Assembly: GCA_965230295.1 (NCBI GenBank)
Contig: OZ246001.1
Coordinates: 480,001-544,000, forward strand
Length of the DNA: 64,000 bases
Origin: Marinicella sp.
GTDB taxonomy: Bacteria; Pseudomonadota; Gammaproteobacteria; Xanthomonadales; Marinicellaceae
Direction: 5' to 3'
Shown here one piece after another: positions 33,276 through 45,030 of this stretch (position 1 is its first letter; every line of letters begins with the position of its first letter). The position numbers and the translations under genes are program-made. The notes under the pieces were generated by a model. That model did no database searches and was not told where the DNA came from. It saw only the letters and a program-made list of their open reading frames with translations.

Positions 33276-35435
33276 ATGACTCAAAAAAATAAGCCCATAA
33301 GCCCAACGTCTGACATCCCACTGAAGATCACCAAAACCCCCATGGTTATTCATGGCGACTCAGATTCTAAGCGTGCCGAAATTAAATCTCACTTCATCAA
33401 CACCTATGAAACTTATGAATGTTTGTTTGAATGCTTAAAGGATGATGAAGCTTACTACCAACAACCTGAACCGCTGCGTCATCCTTTGATATTTTATCTG
33501 GCACACACTGCAGTGTTTTTCATCAATAAATTAAGGGTGGCCAAAATCATAGAACACAATGTGGATGAAAGCATTGAATCCATGATGGCCATTGGGGTGG
33601 ATGAGATGTCTTGGGATGATTTGAATGAAGCCAATTATGATTGGCCAACAGTTGCCAAGGTTTATGAATACAGGCATAAAGTCAAAGCTTTGGTGCTTGA
33701 TTTGATTGATCAAATGCCTTTAACTTTACCCATCAATTGGGAGGATCCATTTTGGATCATCTTGATGGGTATTGAGCATGAACGGATCCATTTAGAAACC
33801 TCTTCTGTGTTGATCAGACAATTGGAGCTGAAATATGTGACCTGTTCAACTGATTGGCCACCTCACAACAAAGACCATGATGTGGTCAATAACCAACTGC
33901 TGAAAGTGCCTTCAGGCCCTGTTTCCCAAGGTCGCGAGATGCCTTCCGAAACCTATGGCTGGGACAACGAATACGGTCACTACTCTGAAGATGTGGCTGC
34001 GTTCAAAGCCGCTCAATATTTGGTTTCCAATTCCGAATTTTTGGCTTTCGTAGAAGATGGTGGCTACAAAGACCAACAATGGTGGACTGAAGAAGGCTGG
34101 CGATGGAAATGCTATAAAAAGGCAGAACACCCCACTTTTTGGCGTCAGCAGGATAATCAGTGGCTTTACCGCACCATGACTAGAGAAATAAACATGCCCT
34201 GGAGTTGGCCGGCCGATGTCAACTACTTGGAAGCCAAAGCTTTTTGTAATTGGCTGGCTGCCAGAACAGGCGAGCCCATCAGGCTGCCTACTGAAGCCGA
34301 GTGGCATCGACTGTATGAACACACCATGGGTGATCAACCTCGCTACCCCTTGTGGCAAGACACACCAGGCAACATAGAATTGTCTTATGCGGCTTCTTCT
34401 GTGCCAGTGGATCTATTCCTGTTCGGTGAACAACAGTTTGGTGATGTCATTGGTAATGTGTGGCAATGGACTGAAACCGCCATTGATGGTTTTGACGGTT
34501 TCAAAGTTCATCCGGCTTATGATGATTTTTCTGTGCCCACTTTTGATGGACAACACAATTTAATCAAAGGTGGCAGCTGGATCAGTACCGGCAATGAAGC
34601 ACACTTGGATTCACGGTATGCTTTTCGCCGACATTTTTTTCAACACGCAGGATTTAGATACGTAGAATCGGAGATAACAGTGGATCAAACATTCAATACA
34701 TACGAAACAGACGAACTCATTTCACAATACCTCGAGTTTCACTATGGTGGCGAGTATTTCGGGGTGCCCAATTTTCCCAAAGCTTGTATCGATGCCTTGA
34801 TTCCACATGTTGATTTAAGTCATAACAGCCGGGCATTGGATTTAGGTTGTGCTGTGGGCCGCAGTTCTTTTGAATTGGCCCGGTATTATGAGCATGTCGA
34901 TGCGCTTGATTTCTCAACCCGTTTCATCCGCAATGCGATCAATTTAGTGGATCATGGCGAAGTTAAATACATGATTCCCACTGAAGGTGAACTGACAGAA
35001 TTGAAGTCATTCAGCCTGGCGGATTTGGCTTTGGGCGAACAAGTCAAAAACATTGAATTTTCTCAAGGCGATGCCTGTAATTTAAAAGCTAAATACAGTG
35101 ATTATGATTTGATTTTTGCCGGCAACTTGATCGACCGTTTGTATCAACCCAAGCAATTTTTAACCAGCATCAAAGATCGCATCAAAACTGGCGGGTATTT
35201 GGTACTGACCTCACCCTACACATGGTTGGAAGAATTCACCGAAAAACAAAACTGGTTGGGTGGCATCAAAGTCAATGGCGAAAACGTCACCACCCTGGAT
35301 GCCTTAAAGACCATTTTAGGTCAAGATTTCGAACTGGTGTCCTTGCCTCAAGATGTGCCATTTGTGATCAGGGAAACAGCCAGGAAACACCAACATACAG
35401 TGGCCCAATTAAGCATTTGGAGAAAACGCAGTTAA
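33276..35435 (+). CDS. ovoA: 5-histidylcysteine sulfoxide synthase/methyltransferase (ovothiol)
   Basis: LRHPLIFYLAHTA, GVDEMSWDD, GIEHERIHLETS iron motif, FGE-like domain, FRRHFFQHAGFRY, C-terminal LDLGCAVGR methyltransferase. Confidence 0.95.
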   Translation: MTQKNKPISPTSDIPLKITKTPMVIHGDSDSKRAEIKSHFINTYETYECLFECLKDDEAYYQQPEPLRHPLIFYLAHTAVFFINKLRVAKIIEHNVDESIESMMAIGVDEMSWDDLNEANYDWPTVAKVYEYRHKVKALVLDLIDQMPLTLPINWEDPFWIILMGIEHERIHLETSSVLIRQLELKYVTCSTDWPPHNKDHDVVNNQLLKVPSGPVSQGREMPSETYGWDNEYGHYSEDVAAFKAAQYLVSNSEFLAFVEDGGYKDQQWWTEEGWRWKCYKKAEHPTFWRQQDNQWLYRTMTREINMPWSWPADVNYLEAKAFCNWLAARTGEPIRLPTEAEWHRLYEHTMGDQPRYPLWQDTPGNIELSYAASSVPVDLFLFGEQQFGDVIGNVWQWTETAIDGFDGFKVHPAYDDFSVPTFDGQHNLIKGGSWISTGNEAHLDSRYAFRRHFFQHAGFRYVESEITVDQTFNTYETDELISQYLEFHYGGEYFGVPNFPKACIDALIPHVDLSHNSRALDLGCAVGRSSFELARYYEHVDALDFSTRFIRNAINLVDHGEVKYMIPTEGELTELKSFSLADLALGEQVKNIEFSQGDACNLKAKYSDYDLIFAGNLIDRLYQPKQFLTSIKDRIKTGGYLVLTSPYTWLEEFTEKQNWLGGIKVNGENVTTLDALKTILGQDFELVSLPQDVPFVIRETARKHQHTVAQLSIWRKRS

Positions 35436-36536
35436 ATGAATTTCAAGCCATTCAAAATGGCGCAATTCAGTGCCCAGTGGACTCCAGGTAGCCTCCACAA
35501 CTTGCACAGCAGCAATCCCCAGCCCTGGACATGGGATGAACTGAGTGAGGTCGTCGAGACTGATCTAAACAGCCTACTTATCAAAACGCCCTTTGCCTAT
35601 GAACCGGTAGAGGGCAATCAAACCGTACGCGAACTGATCAGTCACCACTACCATTCAGGTTTGTGTGCTGCTGACATCACCCTGACTTCCGGGGCTCAAG
35701 AAGGGATTTTTCTGGTCATGCAGGCCTTGATCAATCCAGATGATCATGTGATCACTTTCAGCCCCTGTTTTGAACCACTGACTCAAGTAGCCATTGATGC
35801 AGGGGCGGAAGTGTCCATGCTGCCTTTGAATGAATCCAACGGCTGGTCAATCAACTGGGACAGGCTAAAAAGTAGCTTCAAGGATTCAACAAAGCTGGTG
35901 GTTATCAACTTCCCTCACAACCCGACAGGTGCTCACATCAGTCAAGCCGAACTGCTGAAACTGACCGCGCTTTGCGAACAGCACAATTGCTGGCTGTTTT
36001 CAGATGAAGTGTTCCGTGGTTTAGAACACCAATCCGCAGATCGCATCAGCAGTGCTGCTGACCTTTATGACAAGGCTGTATCGATGGGAGTGGTTTCTAA
36101 AGCATTGGCCTTGCCCGGTGTCAGACTCGGTTGGTTGTCATGTCAGGATGATGGCTTGCACCAACGGATTAAGACCATCAAGTCACATTTATCCATATGT
36201 CAAAGCAGTTTAGATGCACAATTGTGTCAAGCCATCATTCCTCACAGTGAAAAAATCTGGCAAAGGAGTATCGACATCATCAACGGCAATAAATCTTATC
36301 TGGCGGCTCTATTGGCAAACAATCAGGCATTCAAATGGCATCTACCAAAGGCTTCGGCCACCGCATTCATAGAGTGTCTAGATTCTGAGGCCACAGCATT
36401 ATGCCAAAATTGGGCAGAACAGCACCGCATGTTGTTGTTACCCAATGAAGTGTTCCTAACTGATGTCTCTGGTTTCAGAATGACGCTGGGATCTCAGAAC
36501 AATCGACCCATGTACGATCACATTTTTAAGATTTAG
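35436..36536 (+). CDS. PLP-dependent class I/II aminotransferase-fold enzyme; candidate ovothiol C-S lyase (OvoB role)
   Basis: NFPHNPTG, SDEVF, SKALALPGVRLGW (PLP lysine); ATG directly abuts the ovoA stop. Confidence 0.8.
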   Translation: MNFKPFKMAQFSAQWTPGSLHNLHSSNPQPWTWDELSEVVETDLNSLLIKTPFAYEPVEGNQTVRELISHHYHSGLCAADITLTSGAQEGIFLVMQALINPDDHVITFSPCFEPLTQVAIDAGAEVSMLPLNESNGWSINWDRLKSSFKDSTKLVVINFPHNPTGAHISQAELLKLTALCEQHNCWLFSDEVFRGLEHQSADRISSAADLYDKAVSMGVVSKALALPGVRLGWLSCQDDGLHQRIKTIKSHLSICQSSLDAQLCQAIIPHSEKIWQRSIDIINGNKSYLAALLANNQAFKWHLPKASATAFIECLDSEATALCQNWAEQHRMLLLPNEVFLTDVSGFRMTLGSQNNRPMYDHIFKI

Positions 36537-38328
36537 CAGCTGTCACTTCATGCATGATTTCGTCATAAGCAACCACTTCATTGCGACCTTTATTTTTGGC
36601 CTCAAACAAGGCCAAATCAGCATGGGTTAACAGCATAGAAATGCGGTGACCTGACAACAAGGTGTTGGTCACTCCAAAACTGGCCGTGATGTCAAAAGCG
36701 GCACCTGATTCACTGCAGTCCATCTGCTCAATGGCATGCCTCATTTTTTCCATCAAGCGCATCATTTCAAGGTGTGAAATACCTGGTGAAACGATGCTGA
36801 ACTCTTCACCACCTAGACGAGCAACGAGAATGTCTTGATCCGCCACTTCTTCACAAGTCAAAATCACTTGTTTCAACACCCAGTCACCCACCAGATGCCC
36901 AAATTGATCATTGACATTTTTAAAATGATCCAAATCCATGATCGCCAAATTGACCGGCTGGTTTTTGGCTTTATGGGTTTCTAACATGTCCTTGATCTTT
37001 TCTTCAAAAGCTTTGCGGGTGAACACCTGGGTCAAGTGGTCTATTTCTGCCACTTCTTTGAAATAATCATGCCGTTTTTTGATTTTATAGGTCCACACGC
37101 CCAACAACAGCAACAAACTGGCAATCAACAACATCATCAGCTGTTGTTTCTTGGTGGTTTCGGCTGACAACTTATTTTCCAATTCCAACAACTTGTTGTT
37201 TTGATTCAATTGATCAATTTGAAGTTCCTGCGCCAAATTAGCATGTTTAACCCTGTAATAGGCCACTTGAGTTGCCAACTTGCGTTCATAGATGGATTTT
37301 TCAATGCTGTTTTTTTGGGCCAAATAATGGTAAGCGGGTTGCATAGAATTACCTTCCAGGCTCAGTTGAATCAAAACATTCAACGCCAAAACCAATTGTT
37401 CAGATTCACCGATACTGGCATTCTCCTCGACTGCCAACACACCAAAAGCCTGGGCTTTTTCATTCAGATCAGCCATCCAATAGATGTGAGCCAGCAAGGC
37501 GTGGTAGTAAACCCTGATGTTCTTAAAGTTGGTTTTCTCAACATCATCTGCCAATGATTCCAGAACGGTCACTGCTTTCATGGCTTCTTCTGGATCAGAT
37601 TGTGCTTTATCGGTAAATTGATAGCGGATTTGGTCAAACCTTAAAAATAGCGATGAAATGTAATTATCAACTTGTTCACAGCGGTCAATGGCTGCAGTGA
37701 TTTCATCATTAAATGCTTCGCCTTTACCCTGACGCATTAAAATCCGATACTTATTAAAACCTCCCATGCATTTATCGTCCTCAGAATAATCTCCTGTCAA
37801 CAGCAATTCAGAGTACTTCAGTGCTATATCATCTTGATTCATCAACCGGTAAGAAATCGCCGCCACATTATTGGTCAATGATCTGAGGTATTTATCTTCG
37901 GTGTTTTCCGTTATTTGAATGGCTGTATTTAAATTGTTCAGCGCTTTCTCGAAATCGCCAGTAATGACTTGTAAATTGGCTGTGAACTGAAGCACTCGAG
38001 CCAAGTACTCAGGGGATTCACAAATGGTAACAATTTCATTGAGTTTATTGATTGAACTGGCGTAGTCTCCTATGAAACTTTCACGGTAAATGACTAAAAA
38101 TTCATAATGACACCGTTCATCAGGACTCATCACTGATACATGGTTTGCCAGTTCAGCCAAGCCAGCAGAAAAGCCAGTTTGATCGACTTTCCTTATCTTT
38201 TCTAATTCCAGCAACCGATGTTTAAATCCATTATCTTCAGCGTTCATGGTTTCTTGTGACCATGAAGACATGGCTGGACCAAGAATCAAACTCAGGCTAA
38301 GAAGCAGTTTAAGAAATAATTTATCCAT
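36526..38328 (-). CDS. Diguanylate cyclase with periplasmic helical (TPR-like) sensor, paralog 2
   Basis: Signal peptide, helical domain, coiled coil, one TM, IDHLT...DLDHFKNVNDQFGH..GD, RLGGEEF, ADLALFEAK..GRN. Confidence 0.92.
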   Translation of the reverse strand: MDKLFLKLLLSLSLILGPAMSSWSQETMNAEDNGFKHRLLELEKIRKVDQTGFSAGLAELANHVSVMSPDERCHYEFLVIYRESFIGDYASSINKLNEIVTICESPEYLARVLQFTANLQVITGDFEKALNNLNTAIQITENTEDKYLRSLTNNVAAISYRLMNQDDIALKYSELLLTGDYSEDDKCMGGFNKYRILMRQGKGEAFNDEITAAIDRCEQVDNYISSLFLRFDQIRYQFTDKAQSDPEEAMKAVTVLESLADDVEKTNFKNIRVYYHALLAHIYWMADLNEKAQAFGVLAVEENASIGESEQLVLALNVLIQLSLEGNSMQPAYHYLAQKNSIEKSIYERKLATQVAYYRVKHANLAQELQIDQLNQNNKLLELENKLSAETTKKQQLMMLLIASLLLLLGVWTYKIKKRHDYFKEVAEIDHLTQVFTRKAFEEKIKDMLETHKAKNQPVNLAIMDLDHFKNVNDQFGHLVGDWVLKQVILTCEEVADQDILVARLGGEEFSIVSPGISHLEMMRLMEKMRHAIEQMDCSESGAAFDITASFGVTNTLLSGHRISMLLTHADLALFEAKNKGRNEVVAYDEIMHEVTAAKS

Positions 38329-38385
38329 AAAATAAAAGTGCCAATGAATCACCAATGGCACTCGGTAAAAGTATTATTTCAACAA

Positions 38386-38553
38386 TCAATCTTCGTCGTC
38401 ATCATCTCCTGGGTGATGGGCGCATTTAAGTTCATTGTTTGACGACAACAATTGTTTTATCTGTACTTTTGAAAGTTGATGAGAAATTTGATTGTTTTGG
38501 TGAACCGAATCAGTTTGTCCGATAGATTCCAATATTTTCACGAGTTTATTCAT
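38386..38553 (-). CDS. 55-aa putative RiPP (borosin-associated) precursor peptide 2; not in ORF track
   Basis: Hand translation MNKLVKILESIGQTDSVHQNNQISHQLSKVQIKQLLSSNNELKCAHHPGDDDDED; RBS AAGAGG 4 nt before ATG; paralog of 41023-41202. Confidence 0.85.
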   Translation of the reverse strand: MNKLVKILESIGQTDSVHQNNQISHQLSKVQIKQLLSSNNELKCAHHPGDDDDED

Positions 38554-38583
38554 AACACCTCTTTTTATAAGTTATTAAGGAAA

Positions 38584-38610
38584 TGTTGTCATCCCCTTTA
38601 AATGACAACA
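38584..38610 (-). promoter_or_regulatory. Hairpin upstream of peptide 2 (possible CsrA/RsmA or operator site)
   Basis: Minus strand TGTTGTCAT-TTAAAGGGG-ATGACAACA: perfect 9-bp stem with AGGGGA. Confidence 0.45.
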
Positions 38611-38630
38611 AAGCTATTCTAACATCAATT

Positions 38631-39185
38631 CTAACCAGAATACGACCCCATCCAAGCTGTCTTTTCGATAAACCATTCTTGGGTCTTTTTTTGATGGACG
38701 CCATGTTCAATGATTTTCCCTTTTTGCATTTTTAAGCGCATATTTGCTGTATTTGCAGCCACATTATCAGCCTGACAAAAAGCAATGATGGTTTCTAAGT
38801 TCAACGCTGTAAAACCATGCGCCATCATCAACTGTTTGGCATGGTGGGCCATTCTTTGACGCCGATAGGCTGATGAAATCATCACACCAATGGCTGCGAT
38901 CATTCGGCTTTCAGGCTTAAACCATGTCAAACCAATGATACCCATATTGACATCATCAATATGGCGCTTAATCACATAAGTGAGGTGATGAGGCTGATCA
39001 TCAGACATCTCTTCAATGGTCTTCTTCAGCTGTTTTTCACATTGGCTGCAGGTCAAAGGTTCACCAATAAACTGCATGACTTCTTGGTTACCATAAATTT
39101 GAACAAAAAAGTCTAAATCGCCTTGGTCTACGGGCTTCAGAAAAATGGGATACTTATTGCTGGTGATGTTGGGTCGAACAATCAA
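38631..39185 (-). CDS. RimJ/RimL-type GNAT acyltransferase 2
   Basis: LKPV...DLDFFVQIY.N.EVMQFIG, IGVMI...YRRQRMA, DNVAA; start uncertain (TTG near 39185, just after the cyclase stop). Confidence 0.8.
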   Translation of the reverse strand: MIVRPNITSNKYPIFLKPVDQGDLDFFVQIYGNQEVMQFIGEPLTCSQCEKQLKKTIEEMSDDQPHHLTYVIKRHIDDVNMGIIGLTWFKPESRMIAAIGVMISSAYRRQRMAHHAKQLMMAHGFTALNLETIIAFCQADNVAANTANMRLKMQKGKIIEHGVHQKKTQEWFIEKTAWMGSYSG

Positions 39186-39192
39186 AGGTTTC

Positions 39193-41007
39193 TCAATCTT
39201 TGTTAACCCTTTGAATGGTCTTGAACTTAATGACTTGATTACGACCTTGTTTCTTGGCTTCAAACAATGCCACATCAGCGTGGGTTAACAACAAAGGCAA
39301 AGAATAACCAGATGTGATGGATGAGGTGTATCCAAAACTGGCTGTGACTGAAAGTTCAGCGCCAGATTCATCACAATCCAGCGTTTCTACAGCAGAACGC
39401 ATCTGCTCCAATTTGGCTTCCATGACATCACATTCTACTTTTGGAAACACGATACAAAATTCTTCGCCACCCAAGCGCGCCAATATCATGTCTTCTTCTA
39501 CAAATTCCTTGATGGCATAGACCACATTTTTCAGCACCCAATCACCAATCAAATGTCCATGGGTGTCATTAACTTTCTTAAAGTGGTCCAAATCCATGAT
39601 GGCCATCTGAATGGGCAGTTTATGATCCTGACAGTAATTCAATTGCACTTTGACCTGTTCTTCAAAAGCTTTCCTGGTCAACACTTTGGTTAAATGATCT
39701 ATTTCTGAAACACCTTTGAAATAATCATGTTTCTTCTTGATTCGCACCAACCACAATGCCATGAAACCCAACAAGGTCAAAATCAACAAAATGACCAGGC
39801 GTTGGTTGTTGGTTTCTTGCTTAGCCAGTTTTTTCTCCAGCTCCAGAACTTCCTTCTGTCGATTCAACTGTTCAATTTCAAACACCTTGGCCAAATTCGA
39901 ATGCTTGACGGTCATGAAAGCCATTTGTTTGGCTTGTGACTGGTCATACATTTTAAGTTCCGCTTCGTTTTTTCGGTTCAAATAATCGTATGACTTAACA
40001 AAGTCACCGCGAGATTTAGAAATGTTTTCTAACACTTCCAGTGCCATGATTAACTGTTCTGTATAACCCAGGTTTTCATTTAAGCTGATGGTTTTTTCTC
40101 CATGTACCATCGCTTCTTCATAATCACCAACCAAGTAGGCAATTTTGGCTTCAATGGCTTTGAAATTTACTTTGATGTTTTTATAGGGTGTGGCATCAAT
40201 TTCTGCCTTCATTGACTCTACCAAATCAGCTATATAGGCCATTTCACCTGCTGCCATTCCACCTGAGGAAAGGGTTCTTTTTATATTGTCTAAAACAATC
40301 GATTGGGCATACAAAGCGTTTCCACTTTCCTTGCAATTCTTTGCAATTTCTAAGATTGTTTCTAAATCTGGGGCATCTTGGTCACCATCCAGATGATACA
40401 TATTTTTACTGTATTGAACCCGGCACAGGTTTTCATCATTGGGCTCAAGGTTGTAATGAAGTTCACTGTATTTAACACTGAGTTCTTTTTGATCTAATAA
40501 GTTATAAACCACAGACGCTCCAGAATATGCGATTAATTTAGATTTTTTATCAACCGTTTGTTCTGCGTTTTGAATGGCGTTATCGACATGGTACGAGGCT
40601 TTTTTATAGTCTCCACTGATGGCACTGATGTTGGAAATCAAGGCGTCAATTCGAATCCTTGCCCGTAAATCATCACATAGAGGAATGATTTTTTCGAGGT
40701 CTGATACTGCCTGTAAAGATTCACCGGCAAATGCCGTTTGGTAGGCCCGAAGGAACTGGTAATGGCAAACTTGGTAAGCCGACATTTGCGATAATTTGTT
40801 TTCCAGCAAATCCAAGCCAGCAATGAATTCGTTGTGGTTACTCAATCTGATGTTTTCTAAGCGCAGAATTTCTTCAGTTAAATGAGGTGGTTCTCCTGTA
40901 GAGTCTGGGTCAGCTTGTGCCAAAGTAATTTGAGGGCACAACAAAACAAAGGACATGAATAGTAACCATGTCCTTATTGTTTTATTTGAGTTTATATTTA
41001 ACAACAA
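39193..41007 (-). CDS. Diguanylate cyclase with periplasmic helical (TPR-like) sensor, paralog 1
   Basis: Signal peptide, helical domain, one TM, DLDHFKKVNDTHGH..GD, RLGGEEF, ADVALFEAKKQGRN. Confidence 0.92.
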   Translation of the reverse strand: MLLNINSNKTIRTWLLFMSFVLLCPQITLAQADPDSTGEPPHLTEEILRLENIRLSNHNEFIAGLDLLENKLSQMSAYQVCHYQFLRAYQTAFAGESLQAVSDLEKIIPLCDDLRARIRIDALISNISAISGDYKKASYHVDNAIQNAEQTVDKKSKLIAYSGASVVYNLLDQKELSVKYSELHYNLEPNDENLCRVQYSKNMYHLDGDQDAPDLETILEIAKNCKESGNALYAQSIVLDNIKRTLSSGGMAAGEMAYIADLVESMKAEIDATPYKNIKVNFKAIEAKIAYLVGDYEEAMVHGEKTISLNENLGYTEQLIMALEVLENISKSRGDFVKSYDYLNRKNEAELKMYDQSQAKQMAFMTVKHSNLAKVFEIEQLNRQKEVLELEKKLAKQETNNQRLVILLILTLLGFMALWLVRIKKKHDYFKGVSEIDHLTKVLTRKAFEEQVKVQLNYCQDHKLPIQMAIMDLDHFKKVNDTHGHLIGDWVLKNVVYAIKEFVEEDMILARLGGEEFCIVFPKVECDVMEAKLEQMRSAVETLDCDESGAELSVTASFGYTSSITSGYSLPLLLTHADVALFEAKKQGRNQVIKFKTIQRVNKD

Positions 41008-41022
41008 TAGACTGCTATCAGA

Positions 41023-41202
41023 TCACTCTTCGTCATCGTCATCTGGTAACAACAAGCAAATCAGATCATTGTTTTGCAATTTAATCTTGTTGAACGCTCG
41101 TTCCTGAATATTCATGCCTTGAATCATTTGTTTTACAGAATCATTTTGATGAATGGATTGGGTTTGTCCAATTTGTTCCAGCAGTTTTACATTGAATTTC
41201 AT
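41023..41202 (-). CDS. 59-aa putative RiPP (borosin-associated) precursor peptide 1
   Basis: MKFNVKLLEQIGQTQSIHQND...NNDLICLLLPDDDDEE; RBS AAGAGGA before ATG at 41202; directly downstream of the borosin methyltransferase. Confidence 0.85.
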   Translation of the reverse strand: MKFNVKLLEQIGQTQSIHQNDSVKQMIQGMNIQERAFNKIKLQNNDLICLLLPDDDDEE

Positions 41203-41238
41203 TGATAGTCCTCTTTTTAAGTTTTTTAAAGATTGCTC

Positions 41239-41256
41239 TTGTCCCCTATAGGACAA
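41239..41256 (-). promoter_or_regulatory. Hairpin upstream of peptide 1
   Basis: Minus strand TTGTCC-TATAGG-GGACAA; contains AGGGGA; mirrors 38584-38610. Confidence 0.4.
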
Positions 41257-41266
41257 AAAAATCATA

Positions 41267-42046
41267 TCATGAATGCTTAATTCGCAACAACCTATTTATT
41301 TTATCAATGTCTTTTTGCTTTTCTTGTCCTGGTGGGATCACTAAAGTGCTTTTTAATGTAACCTCTGCACAAGCTAAGTCCTTGAGCGCCAATGATTTTA
41401 TCAATGGCTTTTCTATGGGCAAGACAGCACATTCATAAATGATCACTTGGTGGTCATCAGGGTAAGTCTCCAACAACATATCAACCAACAGTTGTTTGGC
41501 TTCTTCACTGGTCTCAAATACTTTCAAAGATCTGTCACCAGCCAAAGCTATCTGCCACAAAACCAAATAAGCTGTGGGATCAAAAACGGTTTGATTGAAC
41601 ATGAAATTATTGGCTTCAAAATGCGCAATACCATAGGTTCCAGGATCTATTCCCAAATCTGCATACAAACAATCTTCGGCTGAAACACCCGGTTCCATGT
41701 GGGCTTTGAAACCTTCTTTTCTGGCCATTTCAATGGTTTGGTGTGGAGTCAAAGCAAACACCCCTGGGTGGCCATAAAAAGCACCACAAACTTTTTTCCC
41801 GGCCCTCACTTCCTTCATGATGGTCTCGTTCATTTCCTGGTATGTTTGTTTGCGCGATTTTCCTTCAGCATACAATGACTGTAAACTGATGACATTCTCA
41901 TTCATGGTACCCACCCATTCTTCCACCAATAGGTTAGATGCCGCTACAAAAACCACATCAGCCTGTTCAATAAAATTCCTCGATAAAGGGGTGATGTGAG
42001 CGCCCAAAGTCATGCCTAAGCCCACGTTGACTAAACTGCCTTTCAT
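41267..42046 (-). CDS. Split-borosin peptide alpha-N-methyltransferase (SonM/OphA-like, tetrapyrrole-methylase fold)
   Basis: GSLVNVGLG, LQSLYAEGKSRKQTYQEM, AFYGHPGVF, EPGVSAEDCLYADLGIDPG, LVLWQI, YPDDHQVIIYE, STLVIPP; 259 aa with no fused core. Confidence 0.92.
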   Translation of the reverse strand: MKGSLVNVGLGMTLGAHITPLSRNFIEQADVVFVAASNLLVEEWVGTMNENVISLQSLYAEGKSRKQTYQEMNETIMKEVRAGKKVCGAFYGHPGVFALTPHQTIEMARKEGFKAHMEPGVSAEDCLYADLGIDPGTYGIAHFEANNFMFNQTVFDPTAYLVLWQIALAGDRSLKVFETSEEAKQLLVDMLLETYPDDHQVIIYECAVLPIEKPLIKSLALKDLACAEVTLKSTLVIPPGQEKQKDIDKINRLLRIKHS

Positions 42047-42540
42047 TGATTCAATTTCTCCATTGTAAAATCCCACCTGACAAGGTTGAGATGTTTCTTT
42101 GCTGTTGATGTATTTTTGACTGGGACAAAGCCCATGTTTTGATAACTGATACTCGCTGCTTTGTTATCTGCATGGATATAAACGGTGCAGAGCTTCGCGG
42201 GAAACAGGCGCCGCACTTGACGCATTGCGTTCATTTGAGCCCACTTGCATACCCCTTTGTTTTGATAGGCAGGCACCACGATCATGCCTGATTCAATGCT
42301 TTCATTATGGGGGTACCAGTGCATACTTAACATGCCTGCCCGGTGCAGACCGTCAGTCGTCTCGATGATTTGATAATCCGCTGTTTGTCGTTCGATCTCT
42401 TGCAACATTTTATGGCACAATTGTGCGGCTATGTCAGGCGACACAAGGTCACCAATGTGTCGCATGATGAGCGGATCTTGATATAAATCACTGACGAATG
42501 ACTGGTCTGATTCGGCCAATCGGCGCAATTGGTATGTCAT
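42043..42540 (-). CDS. RimJ/RimL-type GNAT acyltransferase 1
   Basis: LRRLAESD....LYQDP.IMRHIG, ESGMIVVPAYQNKG, DNKAA...YQNMGF; ATGA overlap with the methyltransferase. Confidence 0.85.
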   Translation of the reverse strand: MTYQLRRLAESDQSFVSDLYQDPLIMRHIGDLVSPDIAAQLCHKMLQEIERQTADYQIIETTDGLHRAGMLSMHWYPHNESIESGMIVVPAYQNKGVCKWAQMNAMRQVRRLFPAKLCTVYIHADNKAASISYQNMGFVPVKNTSTAKKHLNLVRWDFTMEKLNQ

Positions 42541-42616
42541 GAAAATTACATTTCCTTTTGAGGTCTCAGCTAAAACAGGCTTATGTTACTATAAACCCAA
42601 AAATCTCACACAACTT

Positions 42617-43432
42617 ATGGCTCAAATATACTTAATACTTTTCACTGTGTTGCTGGCGATCATCGTCATAATGGGGTTGATAAAATGGCGCAAGCAAAGC
42701 AAAAGACGCGCCATATACCGGCTTGAAACGCCTGAAACTTGGGTGGCGTACATCATCAATAACGTGGCACTTTACTCAGTGCTGCCATCGCACCTACAAC
42801 GAGAGCTGTTGGGCCATGTGAATATTTTTCTGTCTGAAAAATATTTTTCCGGCCATGCCGGCCTGGAGGTGACTGATGAGATGCGTGTCACCATCGCTGC
42901 CCAGGCCTGTCTGCTGCTGTTGAACCGAAAAACCAATTACTACCCCCACTTAAAAACCATCCTGATTTATCCGGCTGGATTTAAAAATCCCAATCACGAG
43001 AAACCAGGCCACCATCTGGGTGAATCTTGGGTCCGGGGGCCAGTGGTGCTGTCTTGGGCAGATGCCAAACACGGTGGCAGCAACGCCAAAGATGGCAGTA
43101 ATGTGGTGATCCACGAATTTGCTCATCAATTAGATCAAGTGGATGGTGCCGGAGATGGCAGGCCAGTCATCGAGGGCAACCAACTCAGAACTTGGGGCAA
43201 AGTCATGAGCAAAGAGTTTAAAAACCTCATTGTCAAAGCCAAAATGCGCAGAAAAACATTTTTTGACCATTACGGTGCCACCAATCCAGCAGAATTTTTT
43301 GCGGTGACTTCTGAGCATTTTTTTGAGCAGCCGCATACCTTCAAACGCAAACACGCTGAACTGTATGATTTATTGATGAAATATTACCGTTTGGACCCAG
43401 CCAGTTGGACCTCCCCTATTAAACAACGTTAA
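42617..43432 (+). CDS. MtfA-like zinc peptidase (M90)
   Basis: IAAQACLLLL, GESW.RGPVVLSW, NVVIHEFAHQLD, YGATNPAEFFAV.SEHFFEQP; N-terminal TM. Confidence 0.9.
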   Translation: MAQIYLILFTVLLAIIVIMGLIKWRKQSKRRAIYRLETPETWVAYIINNVALYSVLPSHLQRELLGHVNIFLSEKYFSGHAGLEVTDEMRVTIAAQACLLLLNRKTNYYPHLKTILIYPAGFKNPNHEKPGHHLGESWVRGPVVLSWADAKHGGSNAKDGSNVVIHEFAHQLDQVDGAGDGRPVIEGNQLRTWGKVMSKEFKNLIVKAKMRRKTFFDHYGATNPAEFFAVTSEHFFEQPHTFKRKHAELYDLLMKYYRLDPASWTSPIKQR

Positions 43433-44379: not shown

Positions 44380-44830
44380 TGGCGATTTTGCAAAGCAAAG
44401 AAGCCTTGATGTAATGATTGATTAGCCGTGAGCTTTTGTTATAGCGGCCGCTATCGCTCCTGGCTATCGCGGCAGACCTACATCCGTGTAGTCACCTCTG
44501 ATACCGGCATCCTGCCTCCTCAGAGGACTTACTTCCATGTAAGCCAATCAGAGGCGAAGAGAATAGCCAATGAGCATATGGCGATTTGACGAAGTCAAGA
44601 AGCCTTATGTGAATGGCGTTATAGCACAGGTAATGAAAGTTGGGCGGTTTTATCGAAGATAAAGAAGCCCGATTTGAATACCGCAGTGCGTGCGAGGTAG
44701 CAAGTCATGTTCGCCTCGGCAGCTACCGCATCGATCCCCAGGACGGGGTGAATGCAGAGAATTGTTGGGAACAATTCCTGCCTGCTATCGCTGCATACTT
44801 ACATCCATGTAAGCAGTCGCATTCACTTTT
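44380..44830. repeat. Mosaic of structured repeats and GGA-loop hairpins (possible Csr/Rsm-type ncRNA or REP mosaic)
   Basis: Three GGCG..TT(stem)AAGAAGCC units and four hairpins reading ACA[TC]GGA[TA]GT or GCAGGATGC on the minus strand. Confidence 0.55.
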
Positions 44831-45030
44831 GTTAGGAACAGACATGCAGTGCGAAGCAACTGCTCAGACAATAGTCTGTAAAGGTCGGTTTATTTGCGCA
44901 GCAAATATGAAGACCTGTCAGACCATGAACCAGAATGAAGCCCCAAGAACATTCTTTATCTTTGACAAAAACAACACGCTTTTCGGTGTTTCTGAATAAT
45001 TGTCCACTGCCTTTCCTGATAACTTTAATG

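Follow-up and report, generated by a model that had tools for sequence, protein, structure and literature searches.

A Marinicella split borosin cluster in which precursor peptides and diguanylate cyclases are probably paired

Two pathways of bacterial borosins, a kind of peptide made on the ribosome and modified after translation (RiPP), have been characterised; no biological role is known for these peptides, and their frequent GGDEF neighbour has been reported and left unexplained. Here we analyse a borosin locus in a 64,000-nt stretch of Marinicella sp. (GCA_965230295.1, contig OZ246001.1, positions 480,001 to 544,000, forward strand), hereafter the window, in which positions are given. Seven open reading frames (ORFs), all on the minus strand, occupy 36526-42540 and encode, in this order, a PF13302 acetyltransferase (GNAT1), an N-methyltransferase (NMT), precursor 1, a diguanylate cyclase (DGC1), a second acetyltransferase (GNAT2), precursor 2 and a second cyclase (DGC2); these are the seven co-directional genes that a first-pass annotation of the same DNA had listed. 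The locus is probably a chromosomal sam-type (Type IV, split) borosin cluster composed of a GNAT1-NMT-precursor 1-DGC1 cassette and an NMT-less GNAT2-precursor 2-DGC2 set, with precursors and cyclases forming dedicated pairs.

The closest described system is the sam cluster of Shewanella amazonensis. As set out in the main text of a 2024 preprint (bioRxiv 10.1101/2024.01.09.574750), SamM1 methylates Phe52 of the precursor SamA1, and the pepsin-like SamP (shewasin A) cuts Phe53|Pro54, needing the methylation for efficient cleavage; cell extracts contain an unmethylated anionic peptide that begins at Pro54, and the cluster contains a PF13302 acetyltransferase. The same text counts 3064 precursors in 2596 clusters, with pepsins lying inside the clusters or away from them. 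The son cluster, as far as described in the portions of PMC8429565 and PMC10549244 used here, comprises SonM, SonA, the GGDEF protein SO1480 and the cation efflux pump SO1481; its product is the methylated 16-mer itself (Shewanellamide A), whereas the sam logic leaves the methylated part behind. According to the text of a 2021 preprint (10.1101/2021.12.24.474128), GGDEF genes occur in 56% of split borosin clusters and PF13302 genes in about 26%, the TPR-TM-GGDEF topology (tetratricopeptide repeats, transmembrane helix, cyclase domain) is found, and Type X fusions have the order TPR-TM-GGDEF-NMT.

The Marinicella locus resembles the sam cluster in its split NMT, its PF13302 GNAT, the presence of A1 pepsins in the genome, and leader-fused precursors with a hydrophobic stretch, a Pro and an anionic tail. 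It differs in that the pepsins are distal, in that one NMT is accompanied by two precursor-cyclase modules, and in the size of the precursors (about 90 aa with tails of more than 20 residues in Shewanella sam-type loci; 55-59 aa with 6-7 acidic residues in Marinicella). With the son cluster it shares a homologous NMT and a GGDEF gene beside the precursor, but its precursors are not SonA-like and no efflux pump gene lies in the cluster. Type X proteins have the same domain order, and one example occurs among the relatives of our locus (G056), whereas in the Marinicella cluster cyclase and NMT are separate and there are two cyclases per NMT. A cluster of this kind is thus already described in print, including its GGDEF, PF13302 GNAT and pepsin neighbours, and the Marinicella locus does not change the system; that the co-occurrence with GGDEF genes was known had been said correctly in the first-pass annotation. 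What we add is that precursor and cyclase genes form a stable unit, that sensor clades track peptide classes, and that the sensor occurs almost only in NMT-bearing genomes. Our literature search found no paper joining borosins with c-di-GMP (cyclic di-GMP), and precursor-plus-cyclase modules, their multiplication and the signalling idea are not discussed in the main text of either preprint, the supplements of which may list Marinicella clusters or multi-module loci.

The NMT (41267-42046, minus strand; PF00590, E 8e-21) carries in translation the borosin motifs that had been pointed out earlier, YGHPGVF and SAEDCL[YF]AD, and these patterns retrieved 586 relatives. In the PDB it matches SonM of S. 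oneidensis (7ltc; E 6.8e-72, aligned to residues 2-245 of the 263-aa SonM) as well as the domains of the fungal OphMA and dbOphMA with E of about 1e-45 (OphMA 2e-45). The residues of importance reported for SonM, Y58, R67, Y71 and Y93 (PMC8429565, in the part consulted), align with Y59, R65, Y69 and Y91 of the Marinicella enzyme, which are invariant in 15 relatives. Since there is no fused leader or core and the substrate gene is separate, the enzyme belongs with the split borosins. Homology thus identifies it as a putative split (Type IV), trans-acting borosin backbone amide N-methyltransferase, of the SonM/SamM kind and with its key residues intact, in agreement with the earlier call. An ATGA in the DNA is common to the GNAT1 stop and the NMT start, as had been noticed, which places the NMT start at 42046 and gives a protein of 259 aa. 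Because NMT-less precursor-cyclase modules recur in the genus, the proposal that one NMT serves both precursors is also the parsimonious one.

The two precursor genes lie on the minus strand at 41023-41202 (precursor 1, 59 aa), 64 nt downstream of the NMT gene, and at 38386-38553 (precursor 2, 55 aa), and each is preceded by an AAGAGG Shine-Dalgarno site. The peptides are 43% identical and have no match in Pfam and no NCBIfam model. Precursor 1 consists of a three-helix leader, Cys49-x3-Pro53 and a 6-residue Asp/Glu tail (class 'C-hydrophobic3-P'); precursor 2 has the same leader motif followed by Cys-x-His-x-Pro-Gly and an acidic tail (class 'PG'). Aligned with 30 relatives, they define a family with a short helical leader containing LExIGQxxSxxQ, then Cys-x3-Pro, then an acidic tail; L8, S16, C49 and P53 are invariant, and M1, E9, G12, Q13, Q19 and D55 nearly so. 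dN/dS could be estimated in five of ten comparisons, dS being saturated in the other five, and was 0.14-0.21 for precursor 1 (3/6 comparisons) and 0.21 and 0.59 for precursor 2 (2/4). A family profile searched against 1.84 billion proteins recovered 85 cluster representatives, 70 of them at E<=1e-10; all but one (84/85) are 54-99 aa long, and about 67 of those 84 have Cys-x3-Pro. The invariant Cys (C49) is present in all aligned precursors. In Rheinheimera mesophila (L121) two precursors of the family flank the NMT, one on each side, and the upstream one has no Pro after its hydrophobic stretch.

The family aligns over its full length with the peptide of a Shewanella pepsin-NMT-precursor-DGC locus (L153; hhalign 96.9%, E 2e-10), with the Cys-x3-Pro in register, and the SamA1 methylation site (Phe52) and SamP cut site coincide with this Cys-x3-Pro position. 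Both small ORFs thus fit well with the substrate role first assigned to them, being conserved in 30 relatives and homologous to Shewanella precursors. The SonM/SonA model that had been proposed for them did not hold: neither peptide (phmmer) nor the family profile matched SonA at E<=10, and hhalign gave 0.3% against a relative's SonA-like peptide, which itself matches SonA at 4e-6. By sequence, both appear to be precursors of the sam-type, short-leader, leader-fused family and not SonA-like. Modelled with AlphaFold2 (AF2), precursor 1 shows three helices with its tail extended (pLDDT 76); the model found no Foldseek match, and its best VIA-align Z was 3.6.

Both cyclases are encoded on the minus strand, DGC1 at 39193-41007 (604 aa) and DGC2 at 36526-38361 (a 611-aa ORF from GTG 38361, or 600 aa if it starts at ATG 38328), and both match PF00990 (E 7e-36 and 8e-35). 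Hydropathy gives the same architecture for each: a signal-like N-terminus, about 370 residues, one transmembrane helix (401-425 in DGC1) followed by basic residues, and an intact GGEEF. Together with the TPR-like outer domain described below, this predicted topology is that of the periplasmic-sensor cyclases first suggested. No RxxD I-site precedes GGEEF in either protein. The metal and substrate residues of the catalytic domain are conserved: D472, D474, N480, D481, R511 and GGEEF are invariant across 38 cyclase sequences. The two cyclases are 39% identical overall, 29% (107/370) in the periplasmic part versus 53% (93/175) in the cytoplasmic part. Also invariant in the 38 sequences are Cys 195 and 225 of the DGC1 outer domain (window about 40333-40425), and most of these domains have four Cys, a pattern that fits possible disulfides in a periplasmic domain.

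As for the TPR assignment, Pfam gave a weak TPR signal, below cut-off, whereas structure prediction and structural comparison support it. The AF2 model of the outer domain (pLDDT 88.5, pTM 0.80) consists of 15 paired helices plus a 64-residue stalk helix, and its ESM Atlas neighbours are TPR clusters throughout. Foldseek matched it to LGN/Pins (E 4e-5, TMq 0.59), to phage and Bacillus Rap proteins (TMq 0.56-0.61; among them 8rst with TMq 0.61 and 8rsv with E 8e-4) and to NprR (4gpk, TMq 0.52), at 9-16% identity. In its modelled fold the domain therefore resembles the peptide-binding TPR superhelices. It is net acidic, with 41 Lys+Arg versus 58 Asp+Glu. A complex prediction of full-length DGC1 with precursor 1 (own alignments, without controls) gave ipSAE values of 0.00 and 0.00 and counts neither way.

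The RRNPP receptors of Gram-positive bacteria and their phages lie in the cytoplasm, recognise peptides after re-import and exert their effect through DNA-binding or phosphatase domains. The likeness to this group (Rap, NprR and PlcR with Phr/NprX) is that the predicted fold superposes and that adjacent peptide and receptor genes diversify together in the manner of pherotype cassettes. The differences are that the Marinicella domain is predicted to be periplasmic, drives a GGDEF domain and shares 9-13% identity with them, so that it does not qualify as an RRNPP receptor; the likeness in fold is also generic, TPR solenoids being alike and LGN scoring better (E 4e-5). A further comparison is offered by RcbAB of Vibrio vulnificus, where, in the portion of PMC12282931 used here, the gene just upstream of a TPR-GGDEF cyclase encodes a product that controls the enzyme through its TPR; there, however, RcbB is predicted to be cytoplasmic, the partner is a large TPR protein and not a RiPP precursor, and no methyltransferase is involved.

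Precursor and cyclase were linked by comparison across relatives. The tree of outer domains contains three Marinicella clades (support 100/99, 96/85 and 99/97 in the careful run), and each goes with one peptide class: Cys-hydrophobic3-Pro-Asp in 8/8 cases, Cys-x-His-x-Pro-Gly in 6/6 and Cys-x-[VI]-Glu-Pro in 7/8. Among 61 relatives, 37 NMT-positive and 24 NMT-negative, the sensor domain is present in 43, that is in 37/37 of the former and 6/24 of the latter, four of these six being less than 90% complete. In an even class-wide sample, the sensor-domain profile matched 1/300 other genomes (E<=1e-10) and the NMT profile 5/299; at the single sensor match, one small ORF with an acidic tail separates the cyclase from the NMT. 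The first-pass annotation had reasoned that the link would be undermined if homologous cyclases usually occurred without peptide genes. We found the opposite, the sensor being almost confined to NMT-bearing genomes, and these counts favour the link. We infer that a precursor gene and the cyclase gene that follows it make up a stable unit, whose parts appear to move, multiply and diverge together.

Two points weigh against reading this unit as a dedicated pair. Agreement between clades and classes is by itself no proof of interaction: adjacent genes share their history, so the match shows that the unit was kept, not that its products are in contact. In addition, four cyclases at Marinicella loci (L032, L066, L069 and L070) have no peptide gene of their own. 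One of them, in a 97% complete genome (G014; L070, contig C11), is an orphan at the same chromosomal site with neither NMT, GNAT nor peptide gene. Such cyclases are what one would expect if the genes were merely adjacent to borosin genes and had no functional link with them. That explanation is already a very improbable one. Of the 80 best-matching named loci, 65 have a full-length cyclase on the same strand as the NMT (51/56 where the flank is long enough), every NMT-positive relative has the sensor, and fusion proteins exist. The orphan cyclase of G014, too, is nested inside a peptide-linked clade and for this reason looks like a remnant of a lost cluster.

If the sam chemistry extends to Marinicella, the NMT would dock on the leader and methylate one residue of the hydrophobic stretch that immediately precedes the Pro, as deduced from SamM1, SamA1 and SamP. 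Methylation would license one of two distal cytoplasmic A1 pepsins to cut before the Pro, and the cut would release 7- and 8-residue oligo-Asp/Glu peptides, on which the PF13302 GNATs may afterwards acylate an amino group. The processed peptide might then reach the periplasm, perhaps as a metal complex, and be recognised there by its own cyclase's TPR sensor.

The proteases invoked here had been missed in the first-pass annotation. The genome encodes two PF00026 proteins of 414 and 417 aa (E 4e-17 and 5e-12), each with two D[TS]G motifs and without a hydrophobic leader or signal peptide, at about 0.21 Mb and about 2.09 Mb of the chromosome, the cluster being at 0.52 Mb. Over full length, their identity is 36-49% to most of 21 in-cluster pepsins and 30-36% to the three Shewanella ones among these, and they are best regarded as shewasin-type A1 aspartic peptidases and predicted borosin maturases. 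In other genomes a pepsin gene adjoins the cyclase (G021, G036, G019, G004), and a pepsin lies within the locus in 18/80 named loci (12/56 with flank). By analogy with SamP, a cut before Pro53 of precursor 1 and the equivalent Pro of precursor 2 is predicted to yield 7- and 8-residue tails of Pro or Pro-Gly plus Asp/Glu.

The sam-type reading also has points against it. The two pepsin genes lie 0.31 and 1.57 Mb away from the cluster, without borosin genes as neighbours. No PF00026 match was found in 21/37 NMT-positive relatives, including the 99% complete, three-module G008, and therefore either pepsin processing is not universal or the weak PF00026 model overlooks some genes; conversely, 16 of the 19 PF00026-positive genomes carry an NMT. 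The leader, of about 45 residues and three predicted helices, is shorter than the five-helix borosin-binding domain (BBD) of SonA, to which it has no detectable similarity, and the link to sam draws on the Shewanella homologue plus the SamA1 residues quoted in the preprint. Another candidate for the maturation protease, an M90 peptidase, was rejected, as it adjoins the cluster within the genus only and other genera lack it at their loci.

As to how the products of a pair may communicate, sensing of the processed peptide in the periplasm by its own cyclase would be the single likeliest route, although only a tentative one, and coupling in the cytoplasm is nearly as likely; the remaining weight falls on other or mixed roles. 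The periplasmic route is favoured by a sensor family specific to borosins, by clades that track peptide classes, by an outer domain that diverges faster, and by a fold of the peptide-binding type. The evidence against it is that the precursors have no signal peptide, that no exporter is conserved across 120 loci, that the processing enzymes are cytoplasmic, and that an acidic domain would face poly-acidic tails. Shewanellamide A was found only in cell pellets and not in supernatants, according to the part of PMC10549244 used here, and the text of 10.1101/2024.01.09.574750 describes recovery of the sam peptide from cell extracts. Finally, both published and newly observed fusions place the NMT directly behind GGDEF.

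The fusions, the lack of a conserved exporter and the cell-bound products speak for a cytoplasmic mechanism, in which the GGDEF side of the cyclase would be the target of the precursor-NMT complex or of the cleaved peptide, or c-di-GMP made by the cyclase would control processing, and the TPR domain would read some other envelope cue. We consider it possible, if on the whole unlikely. Type X fusions, TPR-TM-GGDEF-NMT, number 35 members in the text of bioRxiv 10.1101/2021.12.24.474128, and in G056 a 937-aa frame has the NMT directly after GGDEF; the precursors, NMT, GNATs and pepsins alike are without hydrophobic or signal segments. In V. vulnificus, moreover, the TPR of a cytoplasmic TPR-GGDEF protein represses the cyclase and a co-encoded partner relieves the repression (RcbAB, as described in the section of PMC12282931 consulted). 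A generic envelope cue is, however, hard to square with a sensor found almost only beside borosin genes, and pellet extracts include the periplasm, so that a periplasmic ligand stays compatible with the Shewanellamide A and sam results. Carried furthest, the periplasmic route would give Marinicella up to three pherotype-like channels sharing one NMT and the pepsins, each 7-8-residue peptide, possibly as a Ca or Zn complex, being reserved as ligand for the periplasmic TPR sensor that the following cyclase carries; in this full form we rate it as rather unlikely. If true, Gram-negative bacteria would have an autocrine or quorum signal that runs from a RiPP to c-di-GMP, and this would explain the GGDEF gene in more than half of split borosin clusters.

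A different role again is conceivable, with the acidic peptides as effectors, either metal-binding or metal-dependent antimicrobial, the cyclase as a co-regulated partner of sensor or immunity type, and the GNATs serving self-protection. Behind the Pro or Pro-Gly, each tail does consist of 6-7 Asp/Glu. Sheep lung surfactant is known to contain short oligo-Asp peptides whose activity depends on zinc, and PF13302 enzymes of the RimL/MccE type detoxify microcin C. The S. oneidensis cluster includes a cation efflux pump, and anionic antimicrobial peptides are raised as a possibility in the text of 10.1101/2024.01.09.574750. On the other hand, Shewanellamide A had no antibiotic activity on six strains in the results of PMC10549244 seen here, no transporter or immunity gene is conserved across the 120 loci, and an effector role leaves unexplained why sensor clades follow peptide classes; we regard it as improbable.

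The locus offers a compact natural test bed for the pairing of precursor and cyclase, with two diverged precursor-sensor pairs, one NMT and predicted products short enough for easy synthesis. Comparing cognate with swapped pairs could decide whether peptide and cyclase communicate, and on which side of the membrane they would do so, and the comparative results (stable unit, clade tracking, NMT-bound sensor) narrow the hypotheses worth testing.

The organisation of the cluster varies among relatives. The closest named record, Marinicella meishanensis, shares all seven genes, with 86% identity between the NMTs, and the identical seven-gene layout is found in G003, G015 and G023. The NMT of G007 is flanked on both sides by a precursor-cyclase module, G017 and G010 each carry just one NMT-GNAT2-precursor-cyclase set, and in G021, G019 and G004 modules are distant from the NMT. 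Three precursor-cyclase modules accompany a single NMT in G008 (L028), and G022 (L027) has two NMTs within one array; these two loci seem to capture stages in the gain of cassettes and the loss of NMTs. In the named loci, at least two cyclases are found in 10/80 (9/56 with flank) and at least three in 2/80 (2/56), and two NMTs in 1/80 (1/56). Loci with several cyclases are thus not rare; the duplicated module had previously been singled out as possibly new. Two modules are indeed present in the window, but they did not arise by recent duplication, with cyclases 39%, peptides 43% and GNATs 22% identical. When all ORFs of at least 120 aa near the NMT were clustered in 120 loci (8 of them duplicates), the widely recurring families were cyclase (102), NMT (98), GNAT (67) and pepsin (17) and no other; the next commonest neighbours were housekeeping genes, in at most 14 loci.

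GNAT1 (42043-42540, minus strand, 165 aa, its stop overlapping the NMT start) matches PF13302 (RimJ/RimL/SpeG-like) with E 3.5e-10 and 41.2 bits, and GNAT2 with E 1.2e-19 and 71.8 bits (cut-off 25.4). With 22% identity to each other (E 1e-5), the two represent separate lineages. The closest solved relative of GNAT2 is SpeG (E 1e-4); GNAT1 has no PDB relative at E<=0.001. With these two as queries, a GNAT was found in 27/80 named loci (17/56 with flank), and two GNATs in 3/80 (3/56), all Marinicella. A GNAT2-type gene directly precedes the Pro-Gly-class peptide in all eight Marinicella loci that have such a peptide, yet across the relatives examined there is no rule by which each module has its own GNAT, as had been assumed.

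Intergenic gaps in the seven-gene array are at most 77 nt. The start of GNAT2 (38631-39185, minus strand, from TTG 39185, or to 39275 from an ATG overlapping DGC1) remains uncertain from sequence, as does the choice between the two DGC2 starts given above. A consensus scan returned 14 promoter-like and 5 terminator-like sites, against 16.5 and 7.9 in shuffled sequence, hence no excess. Terminator-like hairpins at 38584-38610 (minus strand), before precursor 2, and at 40949-40975 (minus strand), inside the called DGC1 start, belong to this set, whose numbers are not above chance. No Rfam family matched anywhere in the 64-kb window. Horizontal acquisition was considered on the basis of composition and set aside, the gap between cluster (GC 0.36-0.46) and flanks (0.42-0.50) being too small for an argument.

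Throughout the genus the cluster lies between an ovothiol-type gene pair and the M90 gene, and the ovothiol pair also flanks it in a neighbouring genus. In the window the pair occupies 33276-36536 (plus strand) and encodes an OvoA-like protein (DinB, FGE-sulfatase and methyltransferase domains) and, directly after it, a class I/II aminotransferase-fold protein. On the other side, the M90 (MtfA-like) zinc peptidase (42539-43432, plus strand) has a hydrophobic N-terminal segment and is divergent from GNAT1; its called start overlaps that of GNAT1, which makes a more internal true start probable. At 44600-44958 (plus strand) lies a dispersed repeat, about 358 bp long, with 60 matches in the genome; 11 of these are nearly full-length (96-99% identity), and many copies measure about 142 bp. 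It has no Rfam match and looks like a non-autonomous element of the miniature inverted-repeat transposable element (MITE) type. Probably no real gene underlies the ORF called across the repeat (44640-44999), and one distal pepsin gene has a further copy of the repeat about 2.5 kb away.

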